IMG/VR virus record: IMGVR_UViG_3300025575_000036
Span: 1-31,413 of that record
Direction: 5' to 3' (one strand)
Source of the DNA: a virus
Lineage: Duplodnaviria; Caudoviricetes
Length of the DNA: 31,413 nt
Shown here: positions 3,658 through 24,835 of the stretch, in pieces
How the letters are laid out: each line of letters opens with the position of its first letter
How positions within the stretch are numbered: position 1 is the stretch's first letter
Program-made: the position numbers and the translations under genes
Notes under the pieces: model-generated
Database searches by the model: none
Told to the model about the DNA's origin: nothing
The model's input: the letters and a program-made list of their open reading frames with translations, nothing else

Positions 3658-3981
3658 TGTATTATTATCATTTAATTGTAAACAGTTTGTTAATAGTATT
3701 ATTTAATTAGATGTATATTGATTATCATATTAGATATTATTTATAGTGCGTTATATGGATTGTAATAGAGTGTTATATATGATAGGTAGTATTAACCTAT
3801 ATGATAGTGTTAACAGTTATGATGCGTGTATTGTTATGTGTAATAGATGCGTTAATGCGATACCAGTTAGTGCATCATGTTAGTTGTGTATTGTAAACCT
3901 ATTATGTATATGTAGTTGACAATAAGATAGATGATATGAGTTGGTTGTAAACTTATTTATTAAATATAGTTTACAATACAT

Positions 3982-4022
3982 TGTGGATAACTTGTGGATA
4001 AAGATTGTCAACCTGTGAATAA
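3982..4022. promoter_or_regulatory. DnaA-box cluster
   Basis: TGTGGATAA twice in tandem (reverse complement of TTATCCACA) plus the variant TGTGAATAA. Confidence 0.7.
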
Positions 4023-4960
4023 ATTTTAGTTGACGATACTTGATTTCTAAAAATGCATTCTTTATAAGGTCGACATATAGAACTATACCGTTCAGTAAGT
4101 AATGCCTAGATGCTGATCAACAGGAATTATGCAATTTACATCTAATTTAATAAATTACTAATTATATCCATTACTTATCGTAAAATATGTAAATTACGCA
4201 ATGTTTTTATTGGATATACTGCAAACATAGACACACAAACGGATGACAGTACCTCAAAATATAAGTAAAAACAGGCAAAATGTATATAAATGAGGCTATT
4301 GGCACATAAGATTACAGGATTGCAGCATGGCCGGGTATATTCCGTTTAAAGGGTTTGCTGGCTCACACCAAAATCGGGTGCCTGTCTCATCCAAGCAATC
4401 TGAAACAAATTCACATTCCGTATATCCCTCTCTGCACGATATTATAGCGATAATCCTAACTCTCACATACTATTATCTTCCATTTACTCCATATTCATAT
4501 CTTTACCGTCTCACTATATCGTAATAAATCCCTCATACTCCGTAGCGATATACTACCTATTCTAACCATTTTACCATATCCACAACTAATTACACCTAAA
4601 TGCATAAACTATCACTCTACGACTCTCTCAGACTTACACAATACACCTACCGGGGGATACTTTTCATTTGTAATATATTTCATCATATATACAAGTACCC
4701 TTTTACAAAATTAACTCAAACTAATATTACAGACATAATATACATAAATATATAATAGTTTAAATTCTAATATTAATCAGTAAATTTTGTAGAGCCTATA
4801 GGGGCGACTGAACGAATATAACATTTACAATTACTTAATATACTAATGATTACCATATCATAATCTTACTTATATTCATCCATTCTCACCTATTTAATAA
4901 TCATTCTTATCTAATCATATACAATATTCATCATATCCTACTCAATCTCATTTTACATAA

Positions 4961-5053
4961 AACTTAGTAAAAATTATAAATACTTCATAAATAATATTCA
5001 CAATCTCATAACTCTACCATAATATATTATTAAGAACTTAGTAAAAATTATAA
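4961..5053 (+). repeat. 19-bp direct repeat flanking the parM promoter (parC-like / ParR operator)
   Basis: AACTTAGTAAAAATTATAA at 4961-4979 and 5035-5053; the second copy abuts the parM RBS. Confidence 0.7.
4999..5026 (+). promoter_or_regulatory. sigmaK-like promoter for parM
   Basis: CACA-N15-CATAATATA; close to the sigmaK consensus mACm-N16-CATAnnnTA. Confidence 0.5.
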
Positions 5054-5067
5054 GGAGTTGTATAAAT

Positions 5068-5940
5068 TTGAAACGTGGCTTGGATGTTGGAAATTATTCC
5101 CTTAAAGAATACCCTGGAACAAATATCAAATCTTTAGTATCAACAGAGGAAAATATATTAGGATCTAAACTTCACTTAGAATATGAGAATAAACATTATT
5201 ATATTGGAGAAGGAAACTTTGAAACTGAATTAAACAAATCTAATAAAGAAAATTTCTTACCACTTCTTCTCACAGGAATTGCATTAAACTCAAATAAGAA
5301 CGATATATTCCAAAGCATAATTTGCGGCCTTCCAATTAATCAATATAAAACTAATCATGAATCCCTAGAAGATTTAATCCTATCCAATAAAGTAAAAGAA
5401 ATTAAATTTAATGGAGAACCTAGAAAGATTATAATATCAGATTTCAAGGTGTATCCTGAAGCCATAGGAGCCTATTACAGCCTTAATACACAAGAGGATG
5501 TAATAATTATAGACATTGGAGGACGTACCTGTGACGTAGCTTATATAGTTAATAAAAAGGTAGTTACATCATCCACTATTGCCGTAGGAACTTTAAATAT
5601 CTATAAAGATATATCAGATAAACTTAACTCAACTTATGGATTAGATTTAGGATTACAAGAAGCTGAAAGAATTATAGAGAAAGGATTCCTAGAACTTGAT
5701 GGATTAAAAGTAAATTTAAGTTTTGTAACAGATATATTAAAACGAAACTTTATGAAGATTAATGATGATTTAACTATGAAATATCCTATTAGAACAGAAA
5801 AGATAATATTAGTTGGTGGAGGTAATATTCTATTTAAACAAGCTTTTAAGAATAGATATAGTAATTCCTCTGTAGCAGATAATCCTATATATGCAAATTC
5901 AATTGGTTTCAGAAAGGTTGCTGATACACTTTGGAATTAA
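5068..5940 (+). CDS. parM: ParM/StbA-family actin-like partition ATPase
   Basis: Actin-fold motifs GLDVGN, PEAIGA, IDIGGRT, LVGGG and ANSIGF; TTG start with AAGGAG RBS. Confidence 0.92.
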   Translation: MKRGLDVGNYSLKEYPGTNIKSLVSTEENILGSKLHLEYENKHYYIGEGNFETELNKSNKENFLPLLLTGIALNSNKNDIFQSIICGLPINQYKTNHESLEDLILSNKVKEIKFNGEPRKIIISDFKVYPEAIGAYYSLNTQEDVIIIDIGGRTCDVAYIVNKKVVTSSTIAVGTLNIYKDISDKLNSTYGLDLGLQEAERIIEKGFLELDGLKVNLSFVTDILKRNFMKINDDLTMKYPIRTEKIILVGGGNILFKQAFKNRYSNSSVADNPIYANSIGFRKVADTLWN

Positions 5941-6074
5941 AAGTAATAGGATTGAGCTTTAAAAATACCCCAGAAGATATAGAATTATATAAATGGATAA
6001 TTTCTCATAGTAATAAAAGTGGATTTATAAAAGATACATTAAGAGCTATGGTATGTGAGGTGTCGAGACACTGA
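5931..6074 (+). CDS. Small ribbon-helix-helix protein, ParR-like adaptor (47 aa)
   Basis: Not in ORF track. TTG overlapping the end of parM; MELKVIGLSFKNTPEDIELYKWIISHSNKSGFIKDTLRAMVCEVSRH* has a strand-helix-helix pattern and the canonical ParR position. Confidence 0.7.
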   Translation: MELKVIGLSFKNTPEDIELYKWIISHSNKSGFIKDTLRAMVCEVSRH

Positions 6075-6204
6075 GGTAAGGGCTTGTGGTATATCCTTAA
6101 AGTTACACTCTACCGTATTCTATGTAGTACACTTGAAATCCACCTATAAATAATATCAGCTTATAGTCATCCACCTGTCTCACAAATACATTGATCTATA
6201 ACAT

Positions 6205-6232
6205 AATAAAAGAGTAGCATCTCTACTACTCT
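6205..6232 (-). terminator. Intrinsic terminator for the minus-strand cassette genes
   Basis: AGAGTAG/CTACTCT stem followed by a T-rich tract on the minus strand, downstream of 6255. Confidence 0.55.
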
Positions 6233-6254
6233 AGTTTAACCTATTCTATTTATA

Positions 6255-6503
6255 TTATCCAATCATCCAACCTGCGAATTTACCCATTCCTTTGCCTGCC
6301 ATAATCATTATAAAAAACTCTTTACTAAGAAATCCTGCTGCAAACATTGCTAAAACAATTCCTATACTAATTACTCCATTTACTTTTTTAAGTTTAGCCT
6401 GTTTAATATCCCACTCCATTTTACATTGCCCAAGAGGAGTTAAAGAATAACCTTTATCTAATTTCTTCTGAAACAACTTAGGAATTTTTATAACTTTAAT
6501 CAT
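6255..6503 (-). CDS. Small membrane protein (82 aa)
   Basis: Basic N-terminus and hydrophobic C-terminal segments; AGGAG RBS. Confidence 0.75.
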   Translation of the reverse strand: MIKVIKIPKLFQKKLDKGYSLTPLGQCKMEWDIKQAKLKKVNGVISIGIVLAMFAAGFLSKEFFIMIMAGKGMGKFAGWMIG

Positions 6504-6513
6504 AATTTCACTC

Positions 6514-6807
6514 CTATTTAATTAATGCACTTTTTATAGATTCTAATAATCCAGGTACTAATCCTTTTGTAGTTCCAGTAGTTCCATCAAAACTTGATTC
6601 TGATATCTTTTTAAGTAATTTAGCAAACTCACTAACAGTTAAAGCAGATCCACCTAAACCCACTAGATCAGCATTATCTTTATCTCCTGTTTTCTTTGCT
6701 AATATTCTTATCACAACTGTAGCTGCAAATGTTAATCCTATGTTGGCATATTGTTCTTTATAAGCTACCAGATGAGCTAATAACACTCCATATAATATAA
6801 CTCCCAT
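6514..6807 (-). CDS. Membrane protein, SpoIIIAC/SpoIIIAD-like
   Basis: Hydrophobic helices around ILAKKTGDKDNADLVGLGG resemble the helix-G(K/D)xxxA-helix hairpin of SpoIIIAC/AD (recognised by eye). Confidence 0.5.
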   Translation of the reverse strand: MGVILYGVLLAHLVAYKEQYANIGLTFAATVVIRILAKKTGDKDNADLVGLGGSALTVSEFAKLLKKISESSFDGTTGTTKGLVPGLLESIKSALIK

Positions 6808-6808
6808 A

Positions 6809-7006
6809 TTACTTACCTAACTTCCCTATTTCTACAAATGCCTTTCCTACACATGCTACAACTGTAGTAATTAACATTGTAGAAGTCACAACTCCTACGT
6901 ATCCTGCTTCTTCTATTTTCCCTAATTTCCCTAATACTTTTTCAACCAATACTCCTCCTACGGTTACTGTACCCATACCTATTAAAAGTCCTATACTTAA
7001 TCCCAT
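6809..7006 (-). CDS. Two-TM membrane protein, SpoIIIAC-like (65 aa)
   Basis: Same size and pattern as SpoIIIAC: TM1-VLGKLGKIEEAGYV-TM2-amphipathic tail; AGGAGG RBS. Confidence 0.6.
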   Translation of the reverse strand: MGLSIGLLIGMGTVTVGGVLVEKVLGKLGKIEEAGYVGVVTSTMLITTVVACVGKAFVEIGKLGK

Positions 7007-7109
7007 AATATATTCCTCCTTATGAGGTGCTTCTATATAATCCGAAATCTACAATCCATTTATAGACTTTGAATTACATAGAAGTTGCCCTCTATATAAT
7101 ATTTACTCA

Positions 7110-7301
7110 TTAAAAGCTATCAGCGTATCCTGATTCTTCACCATTTACAATATAATCAGTAGCCATTACAATTTCCTGACTATCATATATTCCAAAAGCA
7201 TCCTCTAATAATTCTAATATTTCCTTTGCTTGATTTTTATTAATTTCATAATCATAATCCTTTGCAAGAGTTATTAATTTTCTAGTGGTTAAATTTATCA
7301 T
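7110..7301 (-). CDS. Acidic hypothetical protein (63 aa)
   Basis: ORF track; AAGGAG RBS. Confidence 0.7.
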   Translation of the reverse strand: MINLTTRKLITLAKDYDYEINKNQAKEILELLEDAFGIYDSQEIVMATDYIVNGEESGYADSF

Positions 7302-7352
7302 AATCCACTTCTCCTTTAGTTTATTTAGTAGGAATATCCGGAATTCATACTA

Positions 7353-7598
7353 TTATTCAGCTTTCTTAAGTTTATATTCTTTAAAATCAACTACCTTATC
7401 ATTCTTAACTTCAACAACTGTCTCTTGACAGATTTCTTTCTTAGTAATTGATAATAATTTTATAAATACATACTTAAGAATAATGTATATAATCTGAATC
7501 AGATCACTTATTATTCTGATAGGAAGTTTAGTCTCTTTTTTAATTGATTTAACTATTCTTCTAGGACTTAACTTTCTTATTGATAATAAATTTTTCAT
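7353..7598 (-). CDS. Small protein with one hydrophobic segment (81 aa)
   Basis: ORF track; AAGGAG RBS; ends in VVDFKEYKLKK. Confidence 0.7.
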   Translation of the reverse strand: MKNLLSIRKLSPRRIVKSIKKETKLPIRIISDLIQIIYIILKYVFIKLLSITKKEICQETVVEVKNDKVVDFKEYKLKKAE

Positions 7599-7609
7599 AA
7601 TGATTTCTC

Positions 7610-8056
7610 CTTTGTTTTCTTTATATTTTTCTTTTGAGACTATAGATACTTTTGTGAAATTTTTATTTACATTGATATCATCAAACTATAAAATCATAAT
7701 TAATAAATTATTTCTAAATATCCCTATATAAACTAAAAGATAAATCTTAACTTCATACAATAATTTCTACTTACCTACTACATAATAAAATCCTAAAAGT
7801 AGTATAAATCTACTACGACTTCAACTAGCCTTTAGGCTTTTACTTATAATAGATAAGCGAACTATTATAGGAGTAAAATTTATCTTTAGTTTACAGGGCA
7901 ATTAGAATAATTATTAGTTACTATTACAATTCTCAAATATCTAGTAAATAAAATTATGCTTAAGTGTTATAGCTGTGTGAGAGCTATGTAACTGGCAAGT
8001 ATTACTAATTACCAGTATCAGGTTAATGATTGTTCTATGTCATATTTTCATTTGGG
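7610..8056 (-). ncRNA. Candidate large structured non-coding RNA/5' leader (or ssDNA structure)
   Basis: No ORF of 60 aa or more; about 60-bp imperfect duplex between 7691-7752 and 7872-7933 enclosing three hairpins; starts just after a sigmaK-like promoter. Confidence 0.5.
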
Positions 8057-8063
8057 ATTACTA

Positions 8064-8092
8064 CATACTATGGGGTGTGAGGTCGAGGTGTT
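8064..8092 (-). promoter_or_regulatory. sigmaK-like promoter
   Basis: Minus strand gtAACA-N16-CATAGTATG. Confidence 0.6.
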
Positions 8093-8099
8093 ACTATTA

Positions 8100-8729
8100 T
8101 TATAAAAATACTCTAGTGAAATCATTTAACTGGAAATCTAATTGAATAATCTTAATTTCATCATTTATAAATATCTCATTCTTATGCTGAATATCATCAA
8201 TTATAATTAACCTGGGGAATATATTTATCTTATCACCGCTCAATTGATTATATAGATCATTAGATAAGGCCTGAGCTTCCCCTGATTCATAAATAGTAAT
8301 ATATTTATCTACTTCTACACTTTTAGTTCTAACAACTTCTATAATATTAAAGAATACTTTATCTCCAATAGTATAAACACAATAGGCATCAGACATATAT
8401 TTTCTTTTCATCCAAGGCTGCTCTTGATTAAAATAATTAATAACTGCTCCATTTTTAACTAACTTAGCTAAATAGTCTAATGCCAATATCCCATGATATG
8501 ATGGTTTCTTTGACATATAATATACATTTTTATTAGTTAACTTTTCCTTGAATACATTTAATTTAGAGAACTTAACTAATTTAGATAAATGTAACCTAGC
8601 CATCTCATACCCTCTTCCTTGCCTGTTATAAAACATATTCTGACATTGTGTAATACTAATTGATCCATACATTTCTACAAATAATAATATCTCTCTGTCC
8701 TCACTTGTTAAAAATAATCTACAAGTCAT
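8100..8729 (-). CDS. Replication-relaxation family protein (wHTH + PD-(D/E)XK-like nuclease)
   Basis: N-terminal LTSEDREILLFV...ARLHLSKLV wHTH, a His in SYHGIL, SDAY...IIEV nuclease-like motif; overlaps the FtsK stop, a pairing seen in Firmicutes phages. Confidence 0.7.
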   Translation of the reverse strand: MTCRLFLTSEDREILLFVEMYGSISITQCQNMFYNRQGRGYEMARLHLSKLVKFSKLNVFKEKLTNKNVYYMSKKPSYHGILALDYLAKLVKNGAVINYFNQEQPWMKRKYMSDAYCVYTIGDKVFFNIIEVVRTKSVEVDKYITIYESGEAQALSNDLYNQLSGDKINIFPRLIIIDDIQHKNEIFINDEIKIIQLDFQLNDFTRVFL

Positions 8730-10389
8730 TTATATCCTCCTTATTATCTAATTTAGGAAGTACCGGATTATAAGGTACAAAATTAGGAATTAGCTTTATA
8801 TTTTTTGAAACATTCTTATTATTAGGATCTACATTATCAAATTCTAATGATATAGATGGTTTAACCTGCTGCGTAAACTTAGGTTTCACTGTGATAATAT
8901 CCTTAGTTTCTACATTAATAATTGTTTCTGGTTCTGTATTAATTATTGCTATGCTAGTAGGAGGACTATCTTTTATATTAGGATTTACTATTATCTCCTC
9001 TTCTACAGGAGGTTTAATAGGATTATTACCTTTGCTTGTAGGTCGTGGGGCTGTTCCTACATTTTGTTTTGATTTGAAATCAAGGACATTATCTATAGGA
9101 TTAGTAAATTGTATCTCTGGTATAGTTTTTAATTTCTTTAAGTCAGCAAATAGGTTTCTATGCCCTCTTTTACTTTTAGATAATATATATTTCTTTATTA
9201 CTTGGTCATCTATATATGGGGTTTTAATAAAGTCAAATCCTCTAGCTCTACAACTATATACGGCCACCCTATCATCTAACCCTATTGCAATATTTGGATC
9301 ATCTGTAGCCACTTCACTCGATTTAATATTATTCTGTGCAAAACTTATCCTAAGATTAGTCTGAGATTTAACTAATGGACTTAACATATTGACGGTACAC
9401 CTTTGAAGACAAACTCCTAAAAATACTCCTAGTGCTCTACCAACCTTTGCTATTTCTTCAATCATGGCTATAATTCTATTTTTCTGTTTTGCTATATCTC
9501 TATCATTACCAGTAGTTTCCATAATACTTGATATTTCATCAAAGATAACCCAACATACTGTCATTTTATTATTGGGATGTAATTTATTGTAATCGTATAT
9601 ATCACTCCCTAAAAAATCCTTATGCATAGGCTTTATTAATTTAGATCTCGCTACCATTTTTTCTGATATATGAATAAGCATAGTTTCTACTTCATTTAGA
9701 GTCTCACAAAACGCTCTGCAACATAAGGCATCTTCATATACAACTAAATCTGTTTTTGCTATTTGTCCAAGATATAATTCAAGTTCTGTTTCATCACAGT
9801 TATGAATTAATGTAGTTATTAAAATGTCTAATAGTCTTGATTTACCTCCACCGTTACTACCACTAAGTAAAAAATGAGACACATCTTTTGCTGATATTAT
9901 TACAGGAGAACCTTCTATTGAATTCCCTATGCATAACTCAAATTGAGTTGTCTTTGGAGGCATAAATTCCATATCACTACCCCCAAATCCTTCTATTACA
10001 AATTTAGCTTCAGCAGTTTTTGATCCTTTCCTTTTGATATAGAATAAAAATATGCATCCTATACCTGTCTCAATGAATGGTTTTGCCTTTTCTAATTCTG
10101 ATAAATTCAATCCTTTCGTAGCATATATATTGCAATGATATCCATAAGATGTCTTTTTTATATTAATTAAAGTATACGTTCCACCATAACTAGTTTTATA
10201 GTTTAGTTCAAACATAATGTCTCCCCAATCCTCAACTAATCTATATATTTCTTTATTTATATCTGATTCTATTTTTCTGTTTTTCATGGTAGTATTAATC
10301 TTTTGTTTTAGACTTTTAATATTTAGTTTTTTTATTAATCCTCCCTTTTTATTTGATTTCTGAGTTATGGCTACTTTAACCATATCCAT
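8719..10389 (-). CDS. FtsK/SpoIIIE-family DNA translocase / coupling ATPase
   Basis: HFLLSGSNGGGKS Walker A, VIFDE Walker B, GRALGV...LQR; Pro-rich tail; no obvious TM segment; AAGGAGG favours the ATG at 10383. Confidence 0.9.
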   Translation of the reverse strand: MDMVKVAITQKSNKKGGLIKKLNIKSLKQKINTTMKNRKIESDINKEIYRLVEDWGDIMFELNYKTSYGGTYTLINIKKTSYGYHCNIYATKGLNLSELEKAKPFIETGIGCIFLFYIKRKGSKTAEAKFVIEGFGGSDMEFMPPKTTQFELCIGNSIEGSPVIISAKDVSHFLLSGSNGGGKSRLLDILITTLIHNCDETELELYLGQIAKTDLVVYEDALCCRAFCETLNEVETMLIHISEKMVARSKLIKPMHKDFLGSDIYDYNKLHPNNKMTVCWVIFDEISSIMETTGNDRDIAKQKNRIIAMIEEIAKVGRALGVFLGVCLQRCTVNMLSPLVKSQTNLRISFAQNNIKSSEVATDDPNIAIGLDDRVAVYSCRARGFDFIKTPYIDDQVIKKYILSKSKRGHRNLFADLKKLKTIPEIQFTNPIDNVLDFKSKQNVGTAPRPTSKGNNPIKPPVEEEIIVNPNIKDSPPTSIAIINTEPETIINVETKDIITVKPKFTQQVKPSISLEFDNVDPNNKNVSKNIKLIPNFVPYNPVLPKLDNKEDINDL

Positions 10390-10397
10390 TCCTCCTT

Positions 10398-10577
10398 TTA
10401 TTTAAATGTTGCTGGCTTACTCCTTTCACTTAATGTATTTAAATATTTTTTATTTTTAATTATTCTATTACTAATATTGTAAACTCTTATTTTACGCTGT
10501 TTCCTACTTTTCTTAGAAATAAAAATCCTTAAAAGACCTATACTCAATCCAGTTCCTATAATAAGTACTACTTCCAT
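10398..10577 (-). CDS. Small single-TM basic protein (59 aa)
   Basis: Not in ORF track. MEVVLIIGTGLSIGLLRIFISKKSRKQRK...PATFK*; GGGAG RBS; first gene of the FtsK operon. Confidence 0.65.
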   Translation of the reverse strand: MEVVLIIGTGLSIGLLRIFISKKSRKQRKIRVYNISNRIIKNKKYLNTLSERSKPATFK

Positions 10578-10616
10578 TTTGATTCTCTCCCTTATTATTT
10601 GTGCTGCTTATATTTA

Positions 10617-10645
10617 TATGATATGGCGGTATACCTCAATGTGTT
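10617..10645 (-). promoter_or_regulatory. sigmaK-like promoter for the FtsK operon
   Basis: Minus strand gtAACA-N16-CATATCATA, an exact fit to mACm-N16-CATAnnnTA. Confidence 0.65.
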
Positions 10646-10662
10646 ACCACTAATTATTATGG

Positions 10663-10690
10663 ATAACAATTAAGATTAATGACATACTAC
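10663..10690 (+). promoter_or_regulatory. sigmaE/sigmaK-like promoter for the Mrr-like gene
   Basis: ATA-N17-CATACTAC, divergent from the promoter at 10617-10645. Confidence 0.4.
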
Positions 10691-10705
10691 TATTGAGGTG
10701 GTTCC

Positions 10706-11332
10706 ATGAGTAGAAGACATAGTAGTATTCAATTATTTAGTAAAAATGAGAAGAAAGCTTTCTATATAATATGTAAATTAATAAATACTTTTGTAATTAT
10801 AATAATAGCTATATTAAAAGCTATCCCTGAGATAATTAATCATATAAAGAAAATAGTAAAAACAAATAAAGTTCTAAAAGGTATAGGATATAATTTTAAT
10901 GATCTTATGGATATGATTGATAAGATAAGTCCAAGACAGTTTGAAATATTCTGTGGTGAGTTATTTAAAAGTACAGGAAAATACTCCAAAGTTGAAATAA
11001 CTGCTGCTAGTTGTGATTACGGCAGAGATATTATATTAACTAGAAATGTTAATGGTTTTGAGGAAGTTACTTTTGTAGAAGTTAAGCATTATGCTAGAAA
11101 TAATATGGTTGGCCGGGAGATTTGCCAGAAATTATTAGGATCATGTCAAATGTTTGATGTTCAAAATGCAATTGTCATTACTACTGGAACATATCATAGG
11201 AATGCATATGAAATTGCTGGTAGAGTTGATAATTTGAAGCTTATGGATATAAATGATATTCAGAAAATGATATTAGATATGAAACCCGAACAAATTAGTA
11301 GAGTTATGATGAGGACACAGAATGCATGTTAA
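10706..11332 (+). CDS. Membrane-anchored Mrr-family (Mrr_cat) endonuclease
   Basis: N-terminal hydrophobic helix; ISPRQFEIFCGELF, DYGRDII, VEVKHY and VITTG motifs. Confidence 0.85.
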   Translation: MSRRHSSIQLFSKNEKKAFYIICKLINTFVIIIIAILKAIPEIINHIKKIVKTNKVLKGIGYNFNDLMDMIDKISPRQFEIFCGELFKSTGKYSKVEITAASCDYGRDIILTRNVNGFEEVTFVEVKHYARNNMVGREICQKLLGSCQMFDVQNAIVITTGTYHRNAYEIAGRVDNLKLMDINDIQKMILDMKPEQISRVMMRTQNAC

Positions 11333-11337
11333 ATATG

Positions 11338-11372
11338 ATATACCTTGAGATAAATTCTTAGGGTATATTTTT
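11338..11372 (+). terminator. Intrinsic terminator
   Basis: ATATACCTTGAGA/TCTTAGGGTATAT stem plus T tract right after the stop. Confidence 0.8.
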
Positions 11373-11399
11373 GTTTATAAAATAATATTTAAATTAGTA

Positions 11400-11428
11400 T
11401 TGACAATTCAAGGATAATATTATAGAAT
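11400..11428 (+). promoter_or_regulatory. sigmaA promoter with the repeated motif as spacer
   Basis: TTGACA-N17(ATTCAAGGATAATATTA)-TAGAAT. Confidence 0.85.
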
Positions 11429-11546
11429 ACATGTAAGATATATTTCAAAGGAGGCTGTAGGATAATAAAATATAATAAGGAGGACGAGCTATGTGAAATA
11501 TAATTATAGACAATTCAATAATAATATTACAGGAGGGATTATTAAA

Positions 11547-11864
11547 ATGAATTTAAATGAATGTATTGTTGTACCTAGAAAAATTGTTATAGAAATAGGA
11601 TTTAATGCAACTGGAATGCTTGTAGAATTATTCAATAAATATAATTTCAATAAGAAAAACTCAACTTTAAATCAATATGGGGAATTTTCTTACAAGATTG
11701 CAGATTGCAAAAGTGATAATGGATTAACTAAATCTGAACAAGCTTCTACTATTAAGAAATTAATTGAAGCTGGATATATTGAATATACAATTTCAAGAGG
11801 ATTACCAAAATTAAGATATTTTAAATTAACAGATAAAGGCATTGAGATATATTCGCTTAAATAA
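11547..11864 (+). CDS. Winged-helix DNA-binding protein resembling the N-terminal domain of phage replication initiators
   Basis: GLTKSEQASTIKKLIEAGYIE...GLPKLRYFKL pattern; AGGAGG RBS supports ATG 11547 over GTG 11493. Confidence 0.65.
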   Translation: MNLNECIVVPRKIVIEIGFNATGMLVELFNKYNFNKKNSTLNQYGEFSYKIADCKSDNGLTKSEQASTIKKLIEAGYIEYTISRGLPKLRYFKLTDKGIEIYSLK

Positions 11865-11888
11865 TAATGTTAAAGGAGGTTTATATTA

Positions 11889-12797
11889 ATGAAAGAATTA
11901 GGAACTTATGATTTAGACACTTTGGAACCCAAAGGTACTATTTTTATTCCTGGACTTGAAGAAAAACAAAGGAATAAAATATATTCAGATAAGAAGACCT
12001 CTGAGGAAGAATTTAATAGATGGATAGCAGAGAAATATGGTAAGTTCTATTTTATATTCCACAGAGTATTAAAGAAAGATTTAAAAAAACAATATATTAT
12101 TAGATTCATATACCTATGTATCTTTATGAATTATTCAGGTGAATTATTATACGGGAACGCTCATGTGCAATTAAGAAAAGCTACTAAAAAGGAGATAGAG
12201 AATAATATACAACCACCTTCAAGGTATATGTTAGAAAAAGATTTGCAGGAAGTATTGAAATTAAGTAGAACAGAAACTATTAAAACTAAAACTGCATTTT
12301 TTGAAAAAGAGTTGATATTTGTTAATAAAAAAGGTAATTTACAGATTAATGATAAATATTGTTTTAAAGGTATAACAGCATATAAGGATAAAAAGACTAG
12401 TAGGACTAGAATATTTGAAAATGCTATAAGGTATATATATGAAAGAGCTAAACCTACCGAACATAAGAAACTTACTCTGCTTATTACCATACTCCCCTAT
12501 ATAAATATACACAATAATATCCTTTGCCATAATATATTATGTGATTCCAATTTCCAATTAAATATTATAGATCTAAAGGAATTATGTAGACTCGTTGAGT
12601 ATTCCGAATCAAACAAAGGCAGACTTAAAAGAGAATTATTAGATTTAAGAGTTGGAGAAGAAATGGTAATTATGTTTAATGAAACTGATACCTCTAAATC
12701 TATAACTGTAAATCCTAGAATTTATTATGGTGGAAGTATTGAAGATTTTGATACTCTTAAAGGAGTTGCTGCTTACTTCGATTTGAGCAACATGTAG
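11889..12797 (+). CDS. Phage DNA-binding/replication protein (RepL-like HTH, tentative)
   Basis: Two HTH-like segments and a C-terminal VNPRIYYGG reminiscent of RepL-type proteins; strong RBS. Confidence 0.5.
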   Translation: MKELGTYDLDTLEPKGTIFIPGLEEKQRNKIYSDKKTSEEEFNRWIAEKYGKFYFIFHRVLKKDLKKQYIIRFIYLCIFMNYSGELLYGNAHVQLRKATKKEIENNIQPPSRYMLEKDLQEVLKLSRTETIKTKTAFFEKELIFVNKKGNLQINDKYCFKGITAYKDKKTSRTRIFENAIRYIYERAKPTEHKKLTLLITILPYINIHNNILCHNILCDSNFQLNIIDLKELCRLVEYSESNKGRLKRELLDLRVGEEMVIMFNETDTSKSITVNPRIYYGGSIEDFDTLKGVAAYFDLSNM

Positions 12798-13065
12798 AAT
12801 TGACTGATGTAATTATCTTGTACTATACCGGAGCAAATTTAAAGTGCAAAATTTACTCTTTGCTACGCAGTATTATATTTTATAATTATAAAGAGTTAGA
12901 TTACGTTTTTTCATATTATTACGTTACTTAGTAATAATATATGCTCAGAATACCTTGTATACTAGTCATATAGCTAATCGCTTGAAACAAACTGACACGA
13001 TTTTATATATTTTTTGTTCACAAAATGACATCGGATATACATTTTAGATTTATTTCCCAAAAGAC

Positions 13066-13094
13066 TTGCTAATTAAAGGATAATGTTATATAAT
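13066..13094 (+). promoter_or_regulatory. sigmaA promoter with the repeated motif as spacer
   Basis: TTGCTA-N17(ATTAAAGGATAATGTTA)-TATAAT; near-identical to the promoter at 3629-3657. Confidence 0.85.
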
Positions 13095-13178
13095 ATAGGC
13101 AAAGGTATCTTTAAGAAGTTGATCGACTCTTATATTTATTAATTGTAATTAAAGGATAATATTAAGGAGGAATGTAAA

Positions 13179-13379
13179 ATGAAGATATATGAGTATATGG
13201 TGACTTATAATGCAGATGGTATCACTGGACGAACTAGAATAATAATGGGTAAAAAGATTAAAAGTTATGAGGATGTAGTAAATATAGATCCGGTAATAGC
13301 TAAACTTAATGACTATAAACTTATTAATCCAACAGTAATGAATTTTATATTGTTAAGAACTTACAGAGGTAAGATGTAA
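13179..13379 (+). CDS. Hypothetical phage protein (66 aa)
   Basis: ORF track; AAGGAGG RBS. Confidence 0.75.
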   Translation: MKIYEYMVTYNADGITGRTRIIMGKKIKSYEDVVNIDPVIAKLNDYKLINPTVMNFILLRTYRGKM

Positions 13380-13547
13380 GAAGTTTTATTGATAATTAAA
13401 GGATAATATTACATTGAAATGTTATTTTGGGAGTCGTAATAGGCTCTCAGAACGATGCTAGTAGATTTTAGGAGTAATTGTATAGGTGGAAGTTAAAGTC
13501 TCTGTATCAAAGGATTAAACACAATAAAATACGAGGAGGAATTATTA

Positions 13548-13850
13548 ATGAATATTGAATTTAAAAATGGGTATAAAGTGGTTACGGACAGTTTACAATT
13601 TATTGTACAGAAAAGAAAAGTGGTTCAAGCCGGGGTTAAAACTAAATCTGAGAATATAGGCAATGTGGTGTTTGAGAATATTGCATATTGCAGCACTTTA
13701 GATTTTGCATTGAAGACAATTGGACAGAAACTAGTATTAGATATAGACGGATTACAGGATATCAAGATAGCTTTGAATAGTTTAGAAAGAGAAATATATG
13801 CTATGACAAAATTATTACAAGTTGAGGTAAAATTCAATGAAGAAAATTAA
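13548..13850 (+). CDS. Hypothetical phage protein (100 aa)
   Basis: ORF track; GAGGAGG RBS. Confidence 0.8.
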   Translation: MNIEFKNGYKVVTDSLQFIVQKRKVVQAGVKTKSENIGNVVFENIAYCSTLDFALKTIGQKLVLDIDGLQDIKIALNSLEREIYAMTKLLQVEVKFNEEN

Positions 13851-14097
13851 TATTAAGGGTGTTAAAAATTGCAGTAACTGTGAATATAGTGATGTTGATG
13901 AGAATGAGGTAAAGATATGTAATAGACCTTTAAAAACAGAAAATAGAGTTGCTACTAATTTAGGAAATGTGGAATTAGCGTGTCCTTGTCATTCTTCTAG
14001 AGATAAGGTTAAAAAAGAAGGTAAATATTTAGGAATGAGAGAGTTTTATTTGAGTAAAGGCAGATTGATACAATTGGAGAAGCTATTATTTGGATAA
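13837..14097 (+). CDS. Small Cys-rich hypothetical protein
   Basis: CxxC...C...CPC; overlaps the upstream gene; GAGGT RBS. Confidence 0.7.
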   Translation: MKKINIKGVKNCSNCEYSDVDENEVKICNRPLKTENRVATNLGNVELACPCHSSRDKVKKEGKYLGMREFYLSKGRLIQLEKLLFG

Positions 14098-14140
14098 GGG
14101 TAATTAAAGGATAATATTATAAATACAAGGAGGATTATTA

Positions 14141-16168
14141 TTGAAGAAAGTATTTTTAGATGATTTGCCAAGAGGCGGAAAGAATATCGGAAGAAACGGT
14201 ATTAATTGGGTTAAGAGTGTAGGATATAGAGTTAAATTTATTTATAAGGACATTAAAGGAGAGGTTGAAATCATTGGTTACAATAGAGACAAAATAAAGA
14301 AAAGAGGATTTGTTGATGTAAGATATAAAGATGATGTAGTATCTTTATTCACTGGTAGTTTTACAGATTGTTGTTTAGGAAAACTAATAAAGAAAATTGG
14401 AACGGGTAATTACTTGCATAATATAAATGAAATTTTAGAAGTAAGTACTGGTAGTATAAAATTAACTAAACAAATATATATAGATAACGGAAAAGAGAGT
14501 AGGAAGGGATATGAATACAAATGTTTAGTATGTGGTGATGAAAACACAATAACTGAAGCTTATTTAAAAAGAGATTGTTGTGGGTGTTCTACTTGTTCAA
14601 ATAAAAAAGTGAGCAAAGGTATAAATGACATTGCAACAACACATCCACATTTAGTGAAATATTTTTTACACATTGAAGATACTCATAAATATAGTTTTGG
14701 AAGTAATGTTATATGTCTTATGATATGTCCGGATTGTGGGTTTGAGAAAGAAACTCAAATTTCAGATTTAAGCACATATGGATATAGTTGCCCAAAATGC
14801 GGCGATGGAATCTCATATCCAAATAAGTTCGTTTTTAATGTTTTAGAACAGTTAGATATTAAGTTTAACACTGAGAATACATTTACTTGGAGTGAGAATA
14901 AGAGATATGATTTTTATATTCATGACAGTAATTGTGTTATAGAGGCAAATGGACAACAACATTACACCAGTTGTTTTGAAAGATTAGGAGGCAGGTCATT
15001 AGAAGATGAGCAAATAAATGATAAATTAAAAGAAAAATTAGCAAAAGAAAACAATATTGAAAATTATATAACTATTGATTGCAGAAGAAGTGAAATGAAT
15101 TTTATAAAAAATAAAGTAATAAACAGTAAATTAAATGAGCTATATGACTTAAGTAAAATAGATTTTATGAAATGTCACGAATATGCCTGTAAAAACTTAG
15201 TAAAAATTATTTGTGACCTATGGAATAATGATAGCACCATAGAAAGTATGGCAAATAAATTCAAACTTGCTAGGCAAACAATTACAAGATATTTAAAACA
15301 AGGTAATTTAGTAAATTGGTGTGATTATAAACCTTTTTCAAGGAAACCTACCGCAATATTTAAAAAAGATATATATAATAAAACAATTAAAAATAAAGCA
15401 ATAAAAATTAAAAATATAATACAATATAAAAAGGGTATAAAATATAAAAAAGTGATATGTTTAAATAATAATCAAACATACTGTTCTCTAACTAAAGCTA
15501 CCGAATTATCTGGTGCAACTAATATTTGTAATTGTTGCAAAAATAATTCTATATATAGTGGAATAAATACCAACGGAGAATATTTACAGTGGCAATATTA
15601 TAACGAATTCTTAATTGAGCCAAAGCAATTGTTAACCAATAAACAAATAGATGTAATTCTATTCAAGAATAAACAAAGAACAAAGATAATATGTTTAAAT
15701 ACAATGATGATATTTAATTCAATAACAGAAGCAGGCGAAAGATATAATATAAAATGGATAGGTAATATAGTTTCAAATTGTAGAAACAAAAGAAATCATA
15801 CAGGGGTAGATGAAGAAACTGGAGAGTATCTACAGTGGCAATATTATAATGATTTTTTAATAAAACCCAAACTTGTTTTGAGTAATGAAGAAATTGATAA
15901 ATGTCTTTTAGAAAAACAAAAAATAGTTGGACTCAAAAATGGAGGAAAAGGAAAAAAGAAAGTGATTTGTATAAATACAAGAGAAATATTCAATTCAATA
16001 AGAGAAGCAAATGATTTTTACAAATTAAGTGGTATAGGTGTGTCCGCTTGTTGTAATCCTAAAAATAGACATAAATCAGCAGGGAAACATTCAGTAACAG
16101 GAGAGAAATTAATATGGATGTATTATGATGAATATTTAAAATTACAAACTAAAACGGTAATTCAATAA
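14141..16168 (+). CDS. Putative free-standing homing endonuclease (zinc ribbons + Vsr/EDxHD-like nuclease + three NUMOD1-like repeats)
   Basis: Multiple CxxC; SYPNKF...RYDFYI...IEANGQQHY...NDKLK; three K(V/I)IC(L/I)N...W(Q/M)YY repeats. Confidence 0.75.
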   Translation: MKKVFLDDLPRGGKNIGRNGINWVKSVGYRVKFIYKDIKGEVEIIGYNRDKIKKRGFVDVRYKDDVVSLFTGSFTDCCLGKLIKKIGTGNYLHNINEILEVSTGSIKLTKQIYIDNGKESRKGYEYKCLVCGDENTITEAYLKRDCCGCSTCSNKKVSKGINDIATTHPHLVKYFLHIEDTHKYSFGSNVICLMICPDCGFEKETQISDLSTYGYSCPKCGDGISYPNKFVFNVLEQLDIKFNTENTFTWSENKRYDFYIHDSNCVIEANGQQHYTSCFERLGGRSLEDEQINDKLKEKLAKENNIENYITIDCRRSEMNFIKNKVINSKLNELYDLSKIDFMKCHEYACKNLVKIICDLWNNDSTIESMANKFKLARQTITRYLKQGNLVNWCDYKPFSRKPTAIFKKDIYNKTIKNKAIKIKNIIQYKKGIKYKKVICLNNNQTYCSLTKATELSGATNICNCCKNNSIYSGINTNGEYLQWQYYNEFLIEPKQLLTNKQIDVILFKNKQRTKIICLNTMMIFNSITEAGERYNIKWIGNIVSNCRNKRNHTGVDEETGEYLQWQYYNDFLIKPKLVLSNEEIDKCLLEKQKIVGLKNGGKGKKKVICINTREIFNSIREANDFYKLSGIGVSACCNPKNRHKSAGKHSVTGEKLIWMYYDEYLKLQTKTVIQ

Positions 16169-16191
16169 TAATATTACGAAGGAGTGATTAT

Positions 16192-18903
16192 ATGGCTTTA
16201 AATTCACAGATTTTTTTATACAGTGTAGATACAAGTTCTTTTTATAATGATAAAGAAATGATGTTTCATAGATACCTGAGTAGACAGTATAATATTAGAA
16301 AAGATATTATTAAACGTAAAACTAAAAATCAAAAATTAGATAATATGCCATTTGTAGAAAGGTTAGATAAATTTATATCTAACCTAAATAAAAAAATTAA
16401 GAATACTAAAGCTATGCTATATAAAGAATTTGACAAAAATATAACAGTAAGAGAACTAAGAGAACCCTCGATGAATAAATATAACATAATATCTATGTTT
16501 GATTCCAGTTTAACCAGAATTATAGGTGCAAAGAAGAATACTGTTATAAAGGATATTTTAGTAGTACAAACTTACTTTTTTGAAGTTTTGGAACAACTGA
16601 TTTTAAATGGATTCATGTATAAAAATGAAAAATACTGTTGTTTTACTGCGAGTGCAGGACAAATCAGAACTAAAAAAACTGTATTTATAAAAGAGGACGT
16701 TCTAAAAAAGCATATTAATACTATTACTTGTGGATTAACTATAGAGGAGATAAATAAGCATGGAGGTATAAACATCAATAAATATTTAGCATACTTAGCT
16801 CTCTGTAATTCAGCAACTGATAAATGGGAAAATTATAGTAGTGATATAAATGATATTAAAGACTTTGATATAACTAAAACGATAGTTATACCTGATATGG
16901 AAACAGATGTGAAAGGTATTGTAGATTTTATGGATGATAAAACTTATTCAATTAAAAGAAGACCTGATAAAATTCCAATTGCTCATACAGATGGCTGCGG
17001 TATGATGTTATTGTCTAAGAGTAAGAAATCTATGATGGTGAGATTACCTTGGGTAAAAGGGTTGCTAGTACCCTTTCCTTTTGATAAATTTATACGTGAG
17101 AAAAATAAAGAAACAGGAGTTAATTGTGGAATAGTCAAAGATATTTATGGAAAAGAACATGATATATTAAAAGAAAAAATTGAAATCATATTCACACAAA
17201 GCCAGTTCAAAATGTATAAGTTCTATAATAATACATTAGATACAGAAGGAAATATACTTGAGTCGGGATGGGATTTATATATAAGATACTTCTTGGAGTT
17301 TGAATGTCAAGTGGGTAAATGCAATGAGGAAGAAGATATTTTTAGTCATGCAAAATTAAACTATCAGATGTTACAAACGCTAACAACTATTAGTGATACG
17401 GATTTAAGAACTTTATGTAAAAAAACTAAAAACAATATTACTAGGATTGGTAAGGATAGAAAAACAATGCTGAAAGTTCTAGGAGTAGTGGATTCCAATA
17501 CTAACAAAAATTACGTTCAACAGGCACTAGAAATATATCCCGAATTACTAAATGATACTTATAGTAAAGAAATATTAAAACAAGTAAAGAAAAGTCTAGT
17601 TAAAGCAGGAAGGTCAGGTAAATTAGATTTAGGAGGTACTGGAGTATACACATTTTTAATTCCGGATTTATATGCTTTTTGTGAATATACTTTTTTAAAG
17701 GAGGATGATCCTAAAGGGCTATTAGATGATAAATATGTATATTGTGCATTATATAAAGACTCACCTAAGTTAGACTGTCTAAGATCTCCGCATTTGTACA
17801 AGGAACACGCTGTAAGGAATAATGTTGTAGATAAAGAAAGAGGCAGATGGTTTGTAACAAATGGACTATATACAAGTTGCAAAGATTTAATTAGTAAAGT
17901 GCTAATGTTCGATAATGATGGCGATAAAAGTCTAATTTGGTCAGATAAAGTCGCAATTAAGGTTGCAGAAAGCAACATGGAAAATATAGTACCCTTATAT
18001 TACAATATGGCTAAAGCCGAAGCTGTTTTAATTACTAATGAAAATATATACGCTGGCTTAAAATCCGCCTACACTGGAGGTAATATTGGATTATATAGTA
18101 ATAATATATCGAAAATATTTAATAGTGATAATATAAATTTAGAAGCTATTAAATTACTTTGTATGGAGAATAATTTTACAATAGATTTTGCTAAAACTCT
18201 TTATAAACCTAAGAGGCCGAAAGATAAACAAAAGTTAATTTCTGCATACACCAACGCCAAGGTTCCTAATTTTTTTATTTACGCAAAAGATAAAGACAAG
18301 CATAAAGTGGAAGAAATTAATACAAGCACAGTAAATAAGCTGCAAAAAATAATTCCTAATCCTAATATAAATTTCAAAGGTCTAAAATTAGGAGAATTTG
18401 ATTATAAAATGCTTATGAAAAATAATGCAATAGAGATTGACAATGAAATAGTATCTAAATATACTAAGTTAGATTTAAAAAAACATTTCATGATTAACTC
18501 TAATGATGAAGAATGTAATAATATTGTTTTTCTATATCAAGATATTAAGAAACAGATATTAGAGATAAATGATGATATAGATTATGTAACAGATGTTTTA
18601 GTTAAGTATTTATATGTAGAAAAGAATTCTAGTTTTAAAACTACCTTATGGGAATGTTTTGGTGAGATCATAGTTAACAATTTGAAAAACAATATACCTA
18701 ACAGTTTAGATAATGGGTTTATGTTATGTGAGATTTGCGGAGAAAGAATTGAAGTAACTAATAATAAAACCAAGTATTGTAAGACTTGTGCTGATAAAAT
18801 AAAAGTGCAGCAAGATAGGATTGCAGACAAAAAATATAAAGAAAGGAAGAAAAGCGAGAAAATAGAAAAATCCTTGAATATCGTTGGTATAACTAGTGTG
18901 TAG
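16192..18903 (+). CDS. yonO: YonO-like single-subunit two-barrel DNA-dependent RNA polymerase
   Basis: Catalytic LMFDNDGD (DxDGD), HTDGCGM, RLPWVKG, LNYQMLQTL, RSPHLY; C-terminal zinc ribbon; SPbeta-like position upstream of head genes. Confidence 0.92.
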   Translation: MALNSQIFLYSVDTSSFYNDKEMMFHRYLSRQYNIRKDIIKRKTKNQKLDNMPFVERLDKFISNLNKKIKNTKAMLYKEFDKNITVRELREPSMNKYNIISMFDSSLTRIIGAKKNTVIKDILVVQTYFFEVLEQLILNGFMYKNEKYCCFTASAGQIRTKKTVFIKEDVLKKHINTITCGLTIEEINKHGGININKYLAYLALCNSATDKWENYSSDINDIKDFDITKTIVIPDMETDVKGIVDFMDDKTYSIKRRPDKIPIAHTDGCGMMLLSKSKKSMMVRLPWVKGLLVPFPFDKFIREKNKETGVNCGIVKDIYGKEHDILKEKIEIIFTQSQFKMYKFYNNTLDTEGNILESGWDLYIRYFLEFECQVGKCNEEEDIFSHAKLNYQMLQTLTTISDTDLRTLCKKTKNNITRIGKDRKTMLKVLGVVDSNTNKNYVQQALEIYPELLNDTYSKEILKQVKKSLVKAGRSGKLDLGGTGVYTFLIPDLYAFCEYTFLKEDDPKGLLDDKYVYCALYKDSPKLDCLRSPHLYKEHAVRNNVVDKERGRWFVTNGLYTSCKDLISKVLMFDNDGDKSLIWSDKVAIKVAESNMENIVPLYYNMAKAEAVLITNENIYAGLKSAYTGGNIGLYSNNISKIFNSDNINLEAIKLLCMENNFTIDFAKTLYKPKRPKDKQKLISAYTNAKVPNFFIYAKDKDKHKVEEINTSTVNKLQKIIPNPNINFKGLKLGEFDYKMLMKNNAIEIDNEIVSKYTKLDLKKHFMINSNDEECNNIVFLYQDIKKQILEINDDIDYVTDVLVKYLYVEKNSSFKTTLWECFGEIIVNNLKNNIPNSLDNGFMLCEICGERIEVTNNKTKYCKTCADKIKVQQDRIADKKYKERKKSEKIEKSLNIVGITSV

Positions 18904-19100
18904 AGTTATTATGTATTTATTATAATTTCCTAAACCCACTCATATAGCCATTCCTATAATAATATCTTAAAAATGGATGGTCTATAAGGGAGAATGGACT
19001 ATATGTACACAAAGAAAGAGATTTATTTTTCCCCGTAATTAAAGGATAATATTACAAGCCTGTAGAATCTCGGCTCTAAACGGATTCATAATAATTTAGA

Positions 19101-19146
19101 GGTGGTTAATGTGGCAGATTTATTTCTGTCCAACCACAATTTTTTT
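19101..19146 (+). terminator. Hairpin with T tract (possible terminator/attenuator)
   Basis: GTGGT...TGG-CAGA/TCTG-CCA-ACCAC followed by AATTTTTTT. Confidence 0.45.
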
Positions 19147-19203
19147 AAAGACAATTCAATAATAATATTACGAATATAAAATAAGGATGGAAGGGAAGTA
19201 GTT

Positions 19204-24824: not shown

Positions 24825-24835
24825 GTGATGACAAT

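Follow-up and report, generated by a model that had tools for sequence, protein, structure and literature searches.

The cassette at positions 4961..11372 of the window (the whole stretch of 31,413 nucleotides that was analysed, from a clostridial phage) has as its core an FtsK-type ATPase and a MobC-like protein, a pair of an already published kind, the 'DNA translocation operon' of Bacillus phages (PMC3357382). In this variant the core is accompanied by two SpoIIIAC homologues, a sigma-K-type motif and a long rod spacer; sequence comparison supports the gene set and its conserved order, the SpoIIIAC homology, the sigma-K-type motif and a single-stranded state of the rod. The reading that we favour, tentatively, is that the cassette would be a mobilisation module docking onto the SpoIIIA-SpoIIQ channel to bring phage DNA into the engulfed forespore. 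That it acts in the late mother cell, by whatever route, we consider probable.

The ATPase (8719..10389, minus strand) belongs to the FtsK/SpoIIIE family, as initially annotated (PF01580; phrog_17074/1358), and Walker A, Walker B and arginine-finger motifs are visible. The N-terminal membrane domain and the gamma domain of chromosomal FtsK/SpoIIIE give no Pfam rows in the window protein, and it contains no N-terminal hydrophobic segment. Next to it lies o59 (10398..10577, minus strand), a 59-residue single-helix membrane protein (KD 2.15). A small hydrophobic ORF is found upstream of ftsK in most loci, and o59 is likely the anchor of the ATPase. The window FtsK is 29-42% identical to the FtsK of six relatives, while the five close ones among these six are 46-72% identical to each other, and its tail is 76-93% identical to that of the relative L083. 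The core of the protein (about 1-420) was swapped in from another lineage.

The relaxase-like gene (8100..8729, minus strand) encodes a Replic_Relax/MobC-like protein with a winged helix (1-75) and a putative restriction-type domain. The AlphaFold model is confident (pLDDT 90.5) and the winged helix has a fold match with Z about 9.7, while the restriction-type domain gives weak Foldseek rows to FokI, NucS and McrC, all with E above 0.005 when the whole protein is the query. The initial annotation called it a replication-relaxation nuclease. It is indeed a winged-helix protein with a probable restriction-type domain, but the Replic_Relax cut-off is passed by only one of the seven members scanned (L094, 33.4 bits against PF13814, cut-off 25.3) and not by the window protein. 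The L094 score, and an iterative profile that reaches BtCS33 gp23, tie the family to PF13814. The residues H79, D114, E131 and Y143 are kept, the last three being invariant in the alignment. The MobC relaxase motif consists of a metal-binding DEE and an essential tyrosine (PMC6736028), and here it is incomplete: the third acidic site is Val133 in the window and D/E/Q/A/N in other lineages. That DEE is D-E-V in this clade counts against the favoured reading.

The ftsK gene is immediately upstream of the relaxase-like gene, and in L110 the two form a single fused gene, which upholds a conjugation-like ancestry for the machine proposed earlier. The translocase gene thus adjoins a MobC/Replic_Relax-like gene, as in the published operon (0305phi8-36 orf200/201/203/207; SPO1, GBSV1, Gamma; Pathria et al. 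2012, PMC3357382), which also shares membrane proteins, an actin-like gene and an occurrence in phages of spore-formers. That operon has VirB6 where the cassette has two SpoIIIAC homologues; further, the sigma-K motif and the 120-bp rod are conserved here, while 'sporulation' is absent from the main text of that paper. It is dispensable for plaque growth in the lytic phage 0305phi8-36 (PMC3357382) and a related module is present in DLc1, a phi29-like linear phage, so a role outside both lytic growth and plasmid upkeep fits. The B. subtilis phages 268TH007 and phi18-2 also carry the related module.

The pair also resembles the MOBC modules and TcpA-type coupling proteins of IMEs (PMC5357655, PMC6736028), where the coupling gene lies upstream of a restriction-fold relaxase, the element has no pore of its own and coupling proteins are swapped. 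Proteins with PF13814 class as MobC, and IME relaxases that are nearly identical have exchanged their coupling proteins (PMC5357655). Both the coupling and fusion of ftsK with the relaxase-like gene and the swap of the ATPase, which parallels these exchanges, favour our reading. However, streptococcal MobC IMEs have a VirD4 partner while the cassette pairs with an FtsK-type protein, the DEE motif is incomplete in the cassette, and the presumed helper would be a sporulation channel and not a T4SS.

The two SpoIIIAC homologues are o65 (6809..7006, minus strand) and o97 (6514..6807, minus strand). In hhalign comparisons with host SpoIIIAC, o65 reaches P 96.5 and E 8e-10 over 62 columns and o97 reaches P 94.4 and E 9e-8, while three other small ORF families used as control stay at P < 2. 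The corresponding scores are 48.6 and 42.3, and column shuffles reach at most 17.8. The homology covers the whole two-helix domain and is reciprocal: 142 clusters were retrieved from 1.84 billion proteins, 22 of them are host-type SpoIIIAC, with higher scores against the host profile, and a match in G006 falls at the coordinates of a host spoIIIAC. PF06686 is the sole recurring Pfam family among the clusters (55/142 at E 0.05). Against PF06686 itself the window proteins give no row, and five homologues score 16-19 bits, below the cut-off of 24. The resemblance is to SpoIIIAC and far less to the AD halves, which narrows the earlier description of two SpoIIIAC/AD-like membrane proteins. In P0112, which has two matched stretches, the o97 homologue is apparently fused to that of o65.

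The genes lie outside any spoIIIA operon, and the other seven SpoIIIA proteins are all absent beside them. A tree of 66 columns does not put the phage genes within the sampled host SpoIIIAC group, which counts against the favoured reading and lends no support to capture from the host; naming a donor from the tree was dropped because the alignment is too short. A more specific version, in which a captured SpoIIIAC would graft the FtsK-relaxase pair onto SpoIIIA-SpoIIQ and DNA would be injected into the sealed forespore, with sigma-K and the 120-bp rod RNA in control, is doubtful. Among other phages, a two-helix gene of BtCS33, DLc1, PfEFR-4, PK2 and SP-15 shows a weak likeness to the phage SpoIIIAC family (P 72), and against host SpoIIIAC it reaches P 34. 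Literature searches brought up neither a phage SpoIIIAC nor, for the operon, a sigma-K promoter or this RNA; the first of these searches missed PMC3357382 as well, which makes this absence weak.

The small proteins also bear on whether the DNA goes outwards. In such a scheme phage DNA would be exported late from the mother cell before lysis, to a neighbour or via a co-resident conjugative pore, with the SpoIIIAC-like proteins as pilin-like parts. A coupling pair of MobC-like and FtsK-type proteins would serve this well, sigma-K timing suits a doomed cell, and VirB2-like or VirB6-like genes occupy the same place in other phages (PMC9658697; PMC3357382), a likeness to pilins being seen by eye. 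However, the small proteins match SpoIIIAC and give no TrbC/VirB2 row at E up to 1, nor do any of the 142 relatives. Pfam and PHROG scans found no VirB4, VirB6 or other pore genes among the cassette ORFs, and no cell-wall hydrolase. Without a mating-pore set in the cassette the transfer to a neighbour proposed earlier is not upheld, and outward export in general is rather unlikely.

A sigma-K-type motif, AC-N17-CATA-N3-T, precedes the o59-ftsK-relaxase operon (10618..10645, minus strand). Of the 31 related loci, 18 have it before their operon, spread over 8 of 11 lineages, while 200 shuffles give a mean of 2.1 and a maximum of 7. With AC at -35, CATA-N3-T at -10 and a conserved position, it has the same shape as mapped SigK promoters of C. 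difficile. Other motifs before the operon are not enriched (sigma-E 2, sigma-G 0, sigma-A 12 with 14.9 expected), and readings of the promoter as sigma-E, -G or -A were rejected on that ground; a sigma-70 scan was uninformative (67 sites, 58.5 expected). The sporulation link drawn initially therefore holds for sigma-K, with controls, and for true SpoIIIAC homology, but not for sigma-E, whose sites number 5 against 4.1 expected. The mother-cell factor sigma-K is the likely activator of the module.

A second sigma-K-type motif (8065..8092, minus strand) is directly 3' of the relaxase-like stop codon. Such a motif occurs within 70 nt of this stop in 8/34 loci, mostly close relatives, with a background of 1.5%. 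A third, at 4999-5025, lies before parM, as does a strict motif in two of the six parM loci. A promoter for each unit had been claimed; sites are indeed found at 10645-10618, 8092-8065 and 4999-5025, but there is none directly before the SpoIIIAC pair, and no strict motif precedes mrr in the window (1/12 mrr rows overall).

The timing is a difficulty for the favoured reading. The cassette promoter is of sigma-K and not sigma-E type, while in the B. subtilis scheme sigma-K acts after engulfment and in C. difficile spoIIIA is sigma-E-driven and SpoIIID-repressed (PMC3789822), so by then the channel may no longer serve. This problem disappears if, in clostridia where sigma-K is active early, phage DNA is driven through the new polar septum by the ATPase, as SpoIIIE drives the chromosome, with the SpoIIIAC copies as address tags only. 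The motor is FtsK-family, but it lacks SpoIIIE's membrane and gamma domains. In Bacillus hosts sigma-K is known only as a late factor, and Bacillus-type modules would need another account. Even with a C. perfringens sigK mutant that is blocked earlier than the sigE mutant (PMC3789822), we regard early action at the septum as quite improbable.

After the relaxase-like gene, a spacer (7661..7953, minus strand) contains a 290-base fold-back element, a long imperfect, G-U rich hairpin of 122 bp. The structured non-coding element seen initially is thus confirmed, with a fold z-score of -8.4 as RNA, compared with -2.1 for the opposite strand and -2.5 as DNA. The rod is kept in 16/16 SpoIIIAC-bearing loci at lengths of 69-132 bp, and compensatory pairs make up 18 of 146 in five sequences. 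The apical 110 nt of the 16 rods have a column identity of 39%, too low for a sequence model, and Rfam 15 has no match, whether the window is scanned at E up to 1 or 10 related loci are scanned at the gathering score. A DNA cruciform was ruled out by the 209 G-T against 44 A-C pairs on one strand. We rank first an RNA leader that would time or process the message of the SpoIIIAC pair, which is fairly probable; a single-strand origin ranks below it and is possible but unlikely. In the conserved non-coding region 4040-4960 structure is not beyond that of shuffles (z 0.15).

The partition genes are of a different standing. The ParM-type actin (5068..5940, plus strand; ALP_N 4e-15, phrog_691) was correctly identified, but it is an interchangeable neighbour, replaced by a tubulin-type motor in c-st and others. 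The 47-residue ParR-like RHH protein (5931..6074, plus strand) has no Pfam hit, and its fold is assigned from its resemblance to parM-linked relatives. It ends in flank-derived sequence at a junction near 6046 and is missing the tail that five parM-linked relatives (56-134 aa) have. The C-terminal tail of ParR binds ParM. The proposed parC-like repeats are two 17-nt direct copies (4964..5054, plus strand) flanking the sigma-K-like motif; no 10-mer family with three copies exists upstream of parM, and the repeats are likely an operator and not a parC array.

A partition motor is close by in 9/16 SpoIIIAC-bearing loci, which suits upkeep of a plasmid prophage: alongside ParMR or TubZR, Replic_Relax and FtsK proteins would aid replication or segregation while cells grow, and the rod would be a replication element and the sporulation look secondary. 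Clusters of TrbC/VirB2, Replic_Relax, FtsK/SpoIIIE and RHH genes in Bacillus phages (PMC9658697, PMC11526630) share the ATPase-relaxase pair by partition genes, and the sections on these clusters interpret them as plasmid replication or segregation aids and do not note SpoIIIAC, promoter class or RNA. The related ftsK of phage Fah, which a review (PMC4113786) places among the delayed genes in lytic infection, is also consistent with upkeep and counts against the favoured reading. Still, sigma-K and not sigma-A motifs are enriched, the SpoIIIAC homologues are not accounted for and linear lytic phages carry the module, so we consider upkeep unlikely.

The Mrr-family nuclease (10706..11332, plus strand; PF04471 2.9e-23) has an N-terminal hydrophobic stretch (KD 2.54), in agreement with its description as membrane-anchored. 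Its gene is divergent from the operon, has a terminator-like hairpin at 11337-11369 and lies beside the module in 9/16 SpoIIIAC-bearing loci. This frequent neighbour could point to sabotage or selection during sporulation: the SpoIIIAC copies would block or gate the channel while host DNA is cut by the two nucleases, with the result that phage-free spores fail or the mother cell makes phage. Diverged paralogues could be dominant negatives, the fast exchange of ATPase alleles hints at conflict, and phages are known to alter sporulation (PMC10294663). However, the fixed coupling and fusion of ATPase and relaxase are left unexplained, sigma-K is late for a channel block and mrr has no conserved sporulation motif, which makes such sabotage an unlikely account.

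The remaining genes are small. The basic protein o81 (7353..7598, minus strand) has one hydrophobic stretch, occurs in 10 loci of the close clade and has no Pfam or PHROG family. The DUF2624 protein o63 (7110..7301, minus strand; PF11116 2.8e-6) is a variable insert, found in the window and L005 only. The membrane protein o82 (6255..6503, minus strand) is restricted to the close clade and followed by a terminator-like hairpin at 6232-6211. Among the membrane anchor genes of the operon, o59, o81, o65 and o82 have KD19 values of 2.0-2.2 and o97 1.3. Single-protein locus scans gave no yield.

The 6.4 kb had been described as one unit with ParM/ParR and Mrr as fixed parts; these are variable neighbours, and L083, a relative with 98% identity, lacks parMR at this position. 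Clostridium phage c-st (CST191-197) has the same order of mrr, anchor, ftsK, relaxase-like gene, spacer with rod, small ORF and SpoIIIAC pair, with a promoter motif identical in type, but a tubulin-type partition set instead of ParMR, and its genes are mostly annotated as hypothetical. The absence of the phage's own motif from the cassette is confirmed: of the 27 matches to this 18-nt motif in the window, not one falls between 3692 and 11404.

Delivery into the forespore would then proceed as follows. Sigma-K would activate the operon inside the mother cell; the MobC-like protein would bind, and perhaps nick, a site in the spacer before passing the DNA to the ATPase, presumably tethered by o59. 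The SpoIIIAC pair may enter the host channel and recruit the motor, following the pattern by which mobilisable elements apply their own coupling protein to a helper's pore. Phage DNA would be pumped through the host SpoIIIA-SpoIIQ channel (PMC2703783), to whose SpoIIIAC o65 and o97 are homologous, into the engulfed forespore, and ParMR or the neighbouring tubulin system would be an optional positioning aid.

In favour of this reading are the SpoIIIAC homology together with the sigma-K promoter enrichment, the avoidance of the cassette by the phage's own motif, and the hosts: 59 of the 69 phage records matched by the window FtsK are named for spore-forming genera, a count of names only that is biased by the kinship of the query. 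Against it, the channel is proposed to carry metabolites and not DNA (PMC2703783), the strict motif is absent in 13/31 loci and the SpoIIIAC pair is undetected in 15/31. Further, many relatives of the module sit in chromosomal prophages or small integrated elements, which would reach the spore with the chromosome anyway.

The analysis addresses two open questions, how phage DNA enters spores and what range of cargo the SpoIIIA-SpoIIQ channel has. An operon known since 2012 to be dispensable on plates gains a testable stage (sigma-K, mother cell) and a partner, the SpoIIIA complex. The rod is an undescribed structured element in a widespread phage operon, and about 120 diverged phage-type SpoIIIAC clusters offer a means to probe the channel subunit that is least understood. 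If the more specific version with captured SpoIIIAC is true, virospores could be formed actively even after septation, and DNA would for the first time be a cargo of the SpoIIIA-SpoIIQ channel; as the same cassette is present in c-st, it may bear on the persistence of clostridial phages in spores.

The centre of the cassette is a minus-strand operon that reads, in order, o59 (10398-10577), ftsK (8719-10389), a 209-residue relaxase-like gene (8100-8729), a 500-nt spacer, o81 (7353-7598), o63 (7110-7301), o65 (6809-7006), o97 (6514-6807), o82 (6255-6503) and a terminator-like hairpin. The divergent mrr (10706-11332) lies upstream, and parM-parR (5068-5940 and 5931-6074) converges on the operon from the left. 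The 31.4-kb window further encodes a terminase, a portal and a single-subunit RNA polymerase. Its host is probably a clostridium, judging from the named sources whose cassettes come nearest to this one: a Clostridium rectalis prophage (57% identity in the relaxase-like protein) and phage c-st (32% identity). A profile of the relaxase-like protein matched 40 of the 294 Clostridiaceae genomes scored, and 20 of the 40 regions were retrieved for comparison; locus counts leave out the window's own contig (L082) and the duplicates L006, L084, L010 and L011. Ahead of the packaging genes the window also carries a tRNA gene (23618-23689, plus strand), a beta-CASP ribonuclease (19204-20658) and a ClpP-type protease (22466-23080), and two large zinc-finger, homing-endonuclease-like ORFs were seen by eye (14141-16168, with a NUMOD1 match below cut-off, and 28357-29709).

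The o65/o97 pair is found in 16 non-duplicate loci, always preceded by ftsK, the relaxase-like gene and the spacer. What adjoins this core varies: mrr in 9/16, ParM in 3/16 and a tubulin-type gene in 6/16, the last two counts coming without scanned flanks for L009 and L015. The tubulin-type calls are an annotation in c-st, a PhuZ match in L007 and L093, and shared phrog_17961 only in L013, L014 and L089. The 6.4-kb unit of the initial annotation is therefore better described as a constant core with exchangeable neighbours. ParM and the ParR-like RHH protein are indeed present in the window, but parMR is absent from the cassette site of L083, a locus whose relaxase-like protein is 98% identical, and the window's ParR stops at the junction of insert and conserved flank, lacking the tail of its relatives; the supposed parC-like repeats amount to two 17-nt copies. 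About 1 kb of non-coding DNA (4038-4983 and 6046-6250), 80% identical in L083 and C-rich on the plus strand, is not structured as RNA; it may be a genome end, a packaging region or an origin. The cassette of c-st is 1.7 kb away from the terminal repeat. In two lytic Herelleviridae (L004, L134) a partition protein, a metallo-endopeptidase, membrane genes and ftsK form a single run. Among loci without the SpoIIIAC pair, phrog_20704 adjoins ftsK or the relaxase-like gene in L095, L096, L098, L099, L103 and L105, several of which are small integrase-bearing elements, not full prophages.

Two small membrane proteins had been called SpoIIIAC/AD-like. Against host SpoIIIA profiles built from 20 spoIIIA loci (hhalign), the o65 family matched SpoIIIAC at 96.5% over 62 columns and the o97 family at 94.4%, and the AD halves reached at most 18.6%; the two are SpoIIIAC homologues, with much less likeness to AD. 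As controls, the o59, o81 and o82 families stayed below 2%, column shuffles (40 each) gave a top score of 17.8, and a reversed alignment 0.1%. The phage SpoIIIAC profile found a match in 54 of the 401 whole genomes searched, and the one match checked (G006) was host spoIIIAC. From 1.84 billion proteins it retrieved 142 clusters, 22 favouring the host profile by score and 120 the phage profile; 55 match PF06686, any other family is matched by at most 2, and in one cluster o65-type and o97-type genes are seemingly fused. The window's own o65 and o97 proteins fall short of the PF06686 Pfam cut-off, and in a short tree of SpoIIIAC-like proteins the phage genes do not fall within the host SpoIIIAC group sampled. 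Bacillus phages, phi29-like DLc1 and SP-15 among them, have a two-helix gene 5' of ftsK that is weakly SpoIIIAC-like, with P 72 to the phage family (L133:2920-3159, L003:3235-3555, L136:2395-2721, L137:2758-3150, L135:3167-3430); repeated short palindromes upstream were noticed by eye in BtCS33, DLc1 and PfEFR-4.

The structured non-coding element that had been proposed is borne out: positions 7661-7953 are predicted to fold into a single 122-bp stem, with a z of -8.4 as sense-strand RNA against -2.1 for the opposite strand and -2.5 for DNA. A stem of 69-132 bp occupies the spacer in 16/16 SpoIIIAC-bearing loci (in L089 and L093 only at a 1000-nt span, adopted after a shorter one failed), and in 17 full-length loci without the pair the downstream stems are 50 bp or less. 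As background, a stem of 69 bp is attained in 1 of 96 tiles of the window and one of 100 bp in none, the tiling having cut the rod itself in two. Stems upstream of ftsK occur in 2 of 15 loci without the pair (L045, 85 bp; L098, 69 bp). Among loci the shape of the rod is preserved but its sequence is not. When the arms of the 16 rods are aligned and wobble pairs earn no bonus, G-T outnumbers A-C by 209 to 44, and in five alignable sequences both-sided changes in 18 of 146 pairs, exceeding all 500 shuffles, lend the pairing modest support. An RNA is the likeliest identity of the rod, since a promoter motif lies about 110 nt upstream; a strand-specific single-stranded DNA origin is a less likely alternative.

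Mapped C. difficile SigK promoters carry AC in the -35 element and either CATA-N3-T or AATA-N3-T in the -10 element (PMC7438776). Before ftsK, a strict sigma-K pattern has a site in 18 of 31 loci, spread over 8 of 11 lineages, with an antisense count of 4 and a shuffle mean of 2.1 (maximum 7, 200 shuffles). The search spanned 40-340 nt 5' of ftsK (40-600 for L002, with two leading ORFs), and the count omits L003 (Bacillus) and L012 and L087 (short upstream). In their consensus forms, the other patterns were not enriched at this position in the 31 loci (sigma-E 2, sigma-G 0, sigma-A 12 with 14.9 expected); of the sigma-K/sigma-E-like promoters claimed initially, the sigma-K part is thus upheld but the sigma-E part is not. 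In 8 of 34 loci a second sigma-K-type site lies 3' of the stop codon that ends the relaxase-like gene, and the window's cassette holds 5 matches at 4 sites against 1.8 expected. A promoter before each unit had also been proposed, but there is no conserved site at mrr. The phage's own motif is, as stated earlier, missing from the cassette (none in 3692-11404), although the packaging operon also has a gap, of 4.4 kb. This 18-nt AT-rich motif, with 27 copies before phage genes (411-3691, minus strand; 11405-28163, plus strand), probably serves as promoter for the single-subunit RNA polymerase that the phage itself encodes (16192-18903, RdRP fold), an enzyme that resembles YonO.

The assignment of the ATPase to FtsK/SpoIIIE agrees with its retained Walker A, Walker B and arginine-finger motifs; it has neither a membrane nor a gamma domain. 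Its core has been exchanged relative to L083: identity is 42% overall, 21-38% by block at residues 1-424 and 76-93% beyond. At the DNA level a distant allele replaces o59 and the FtsK core (9162-10500) between flanks that are 92-94% identical. In the related locus L110 (4713-6602) a single 629-residue frame, 3' of parM-parR, fuses FtsK and the relaxase-like protein. The 209-residue protein has a confidently predicted fold, a winged helix and a second domain that in structure comparison weakly resembles restriction-type nucleases. The replication-relaxation nuclease of the initial annotation has the winged helix and a Replic_Relax link through relatives (1 of 7 family members scanned exceeds the cut-off, 4 others match below it), but the window's protein itself has no Pfam match and the nuclease likeness is weak. 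H79, D114, E131 and Y143 are invariant across 20 close homologues; where the MOBC motif has its third acidic residue, the window's protein has Val and other lineages vary.

Pathria et al. describe a MobC-like and translocase operon in phages that is dispensable for plaques (PMC3357382). Other papers annotate the operon as an aid to replication, segregation or injection (PMC9658697, PMC11526630, PMC3853050, PMC4113786), the last of which also raises a connection with sporulation as a possibility and puts the Fah ftsK in the delayed class, and phage entrapment has been proposed to proceed via segregation genes at asymmetric division (PMC10294663, PMC12991052). The window's cassette is a previously undescribed version of this known phage operon. 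The best single mechanism, at somewhat under an even chance, would be delivery into the forespore via the SpoIIIA-SpoIIQ channel, a reading that faces the problem of sigma-K timing (post-engulfment in the B. subtilis scheme, with spoIIIA driven by sigma-E in C. difficile) and the incomplete MOBC catalytic motif. As far as sequence can tell, the cassette would quite probably be active in the late mother cell.
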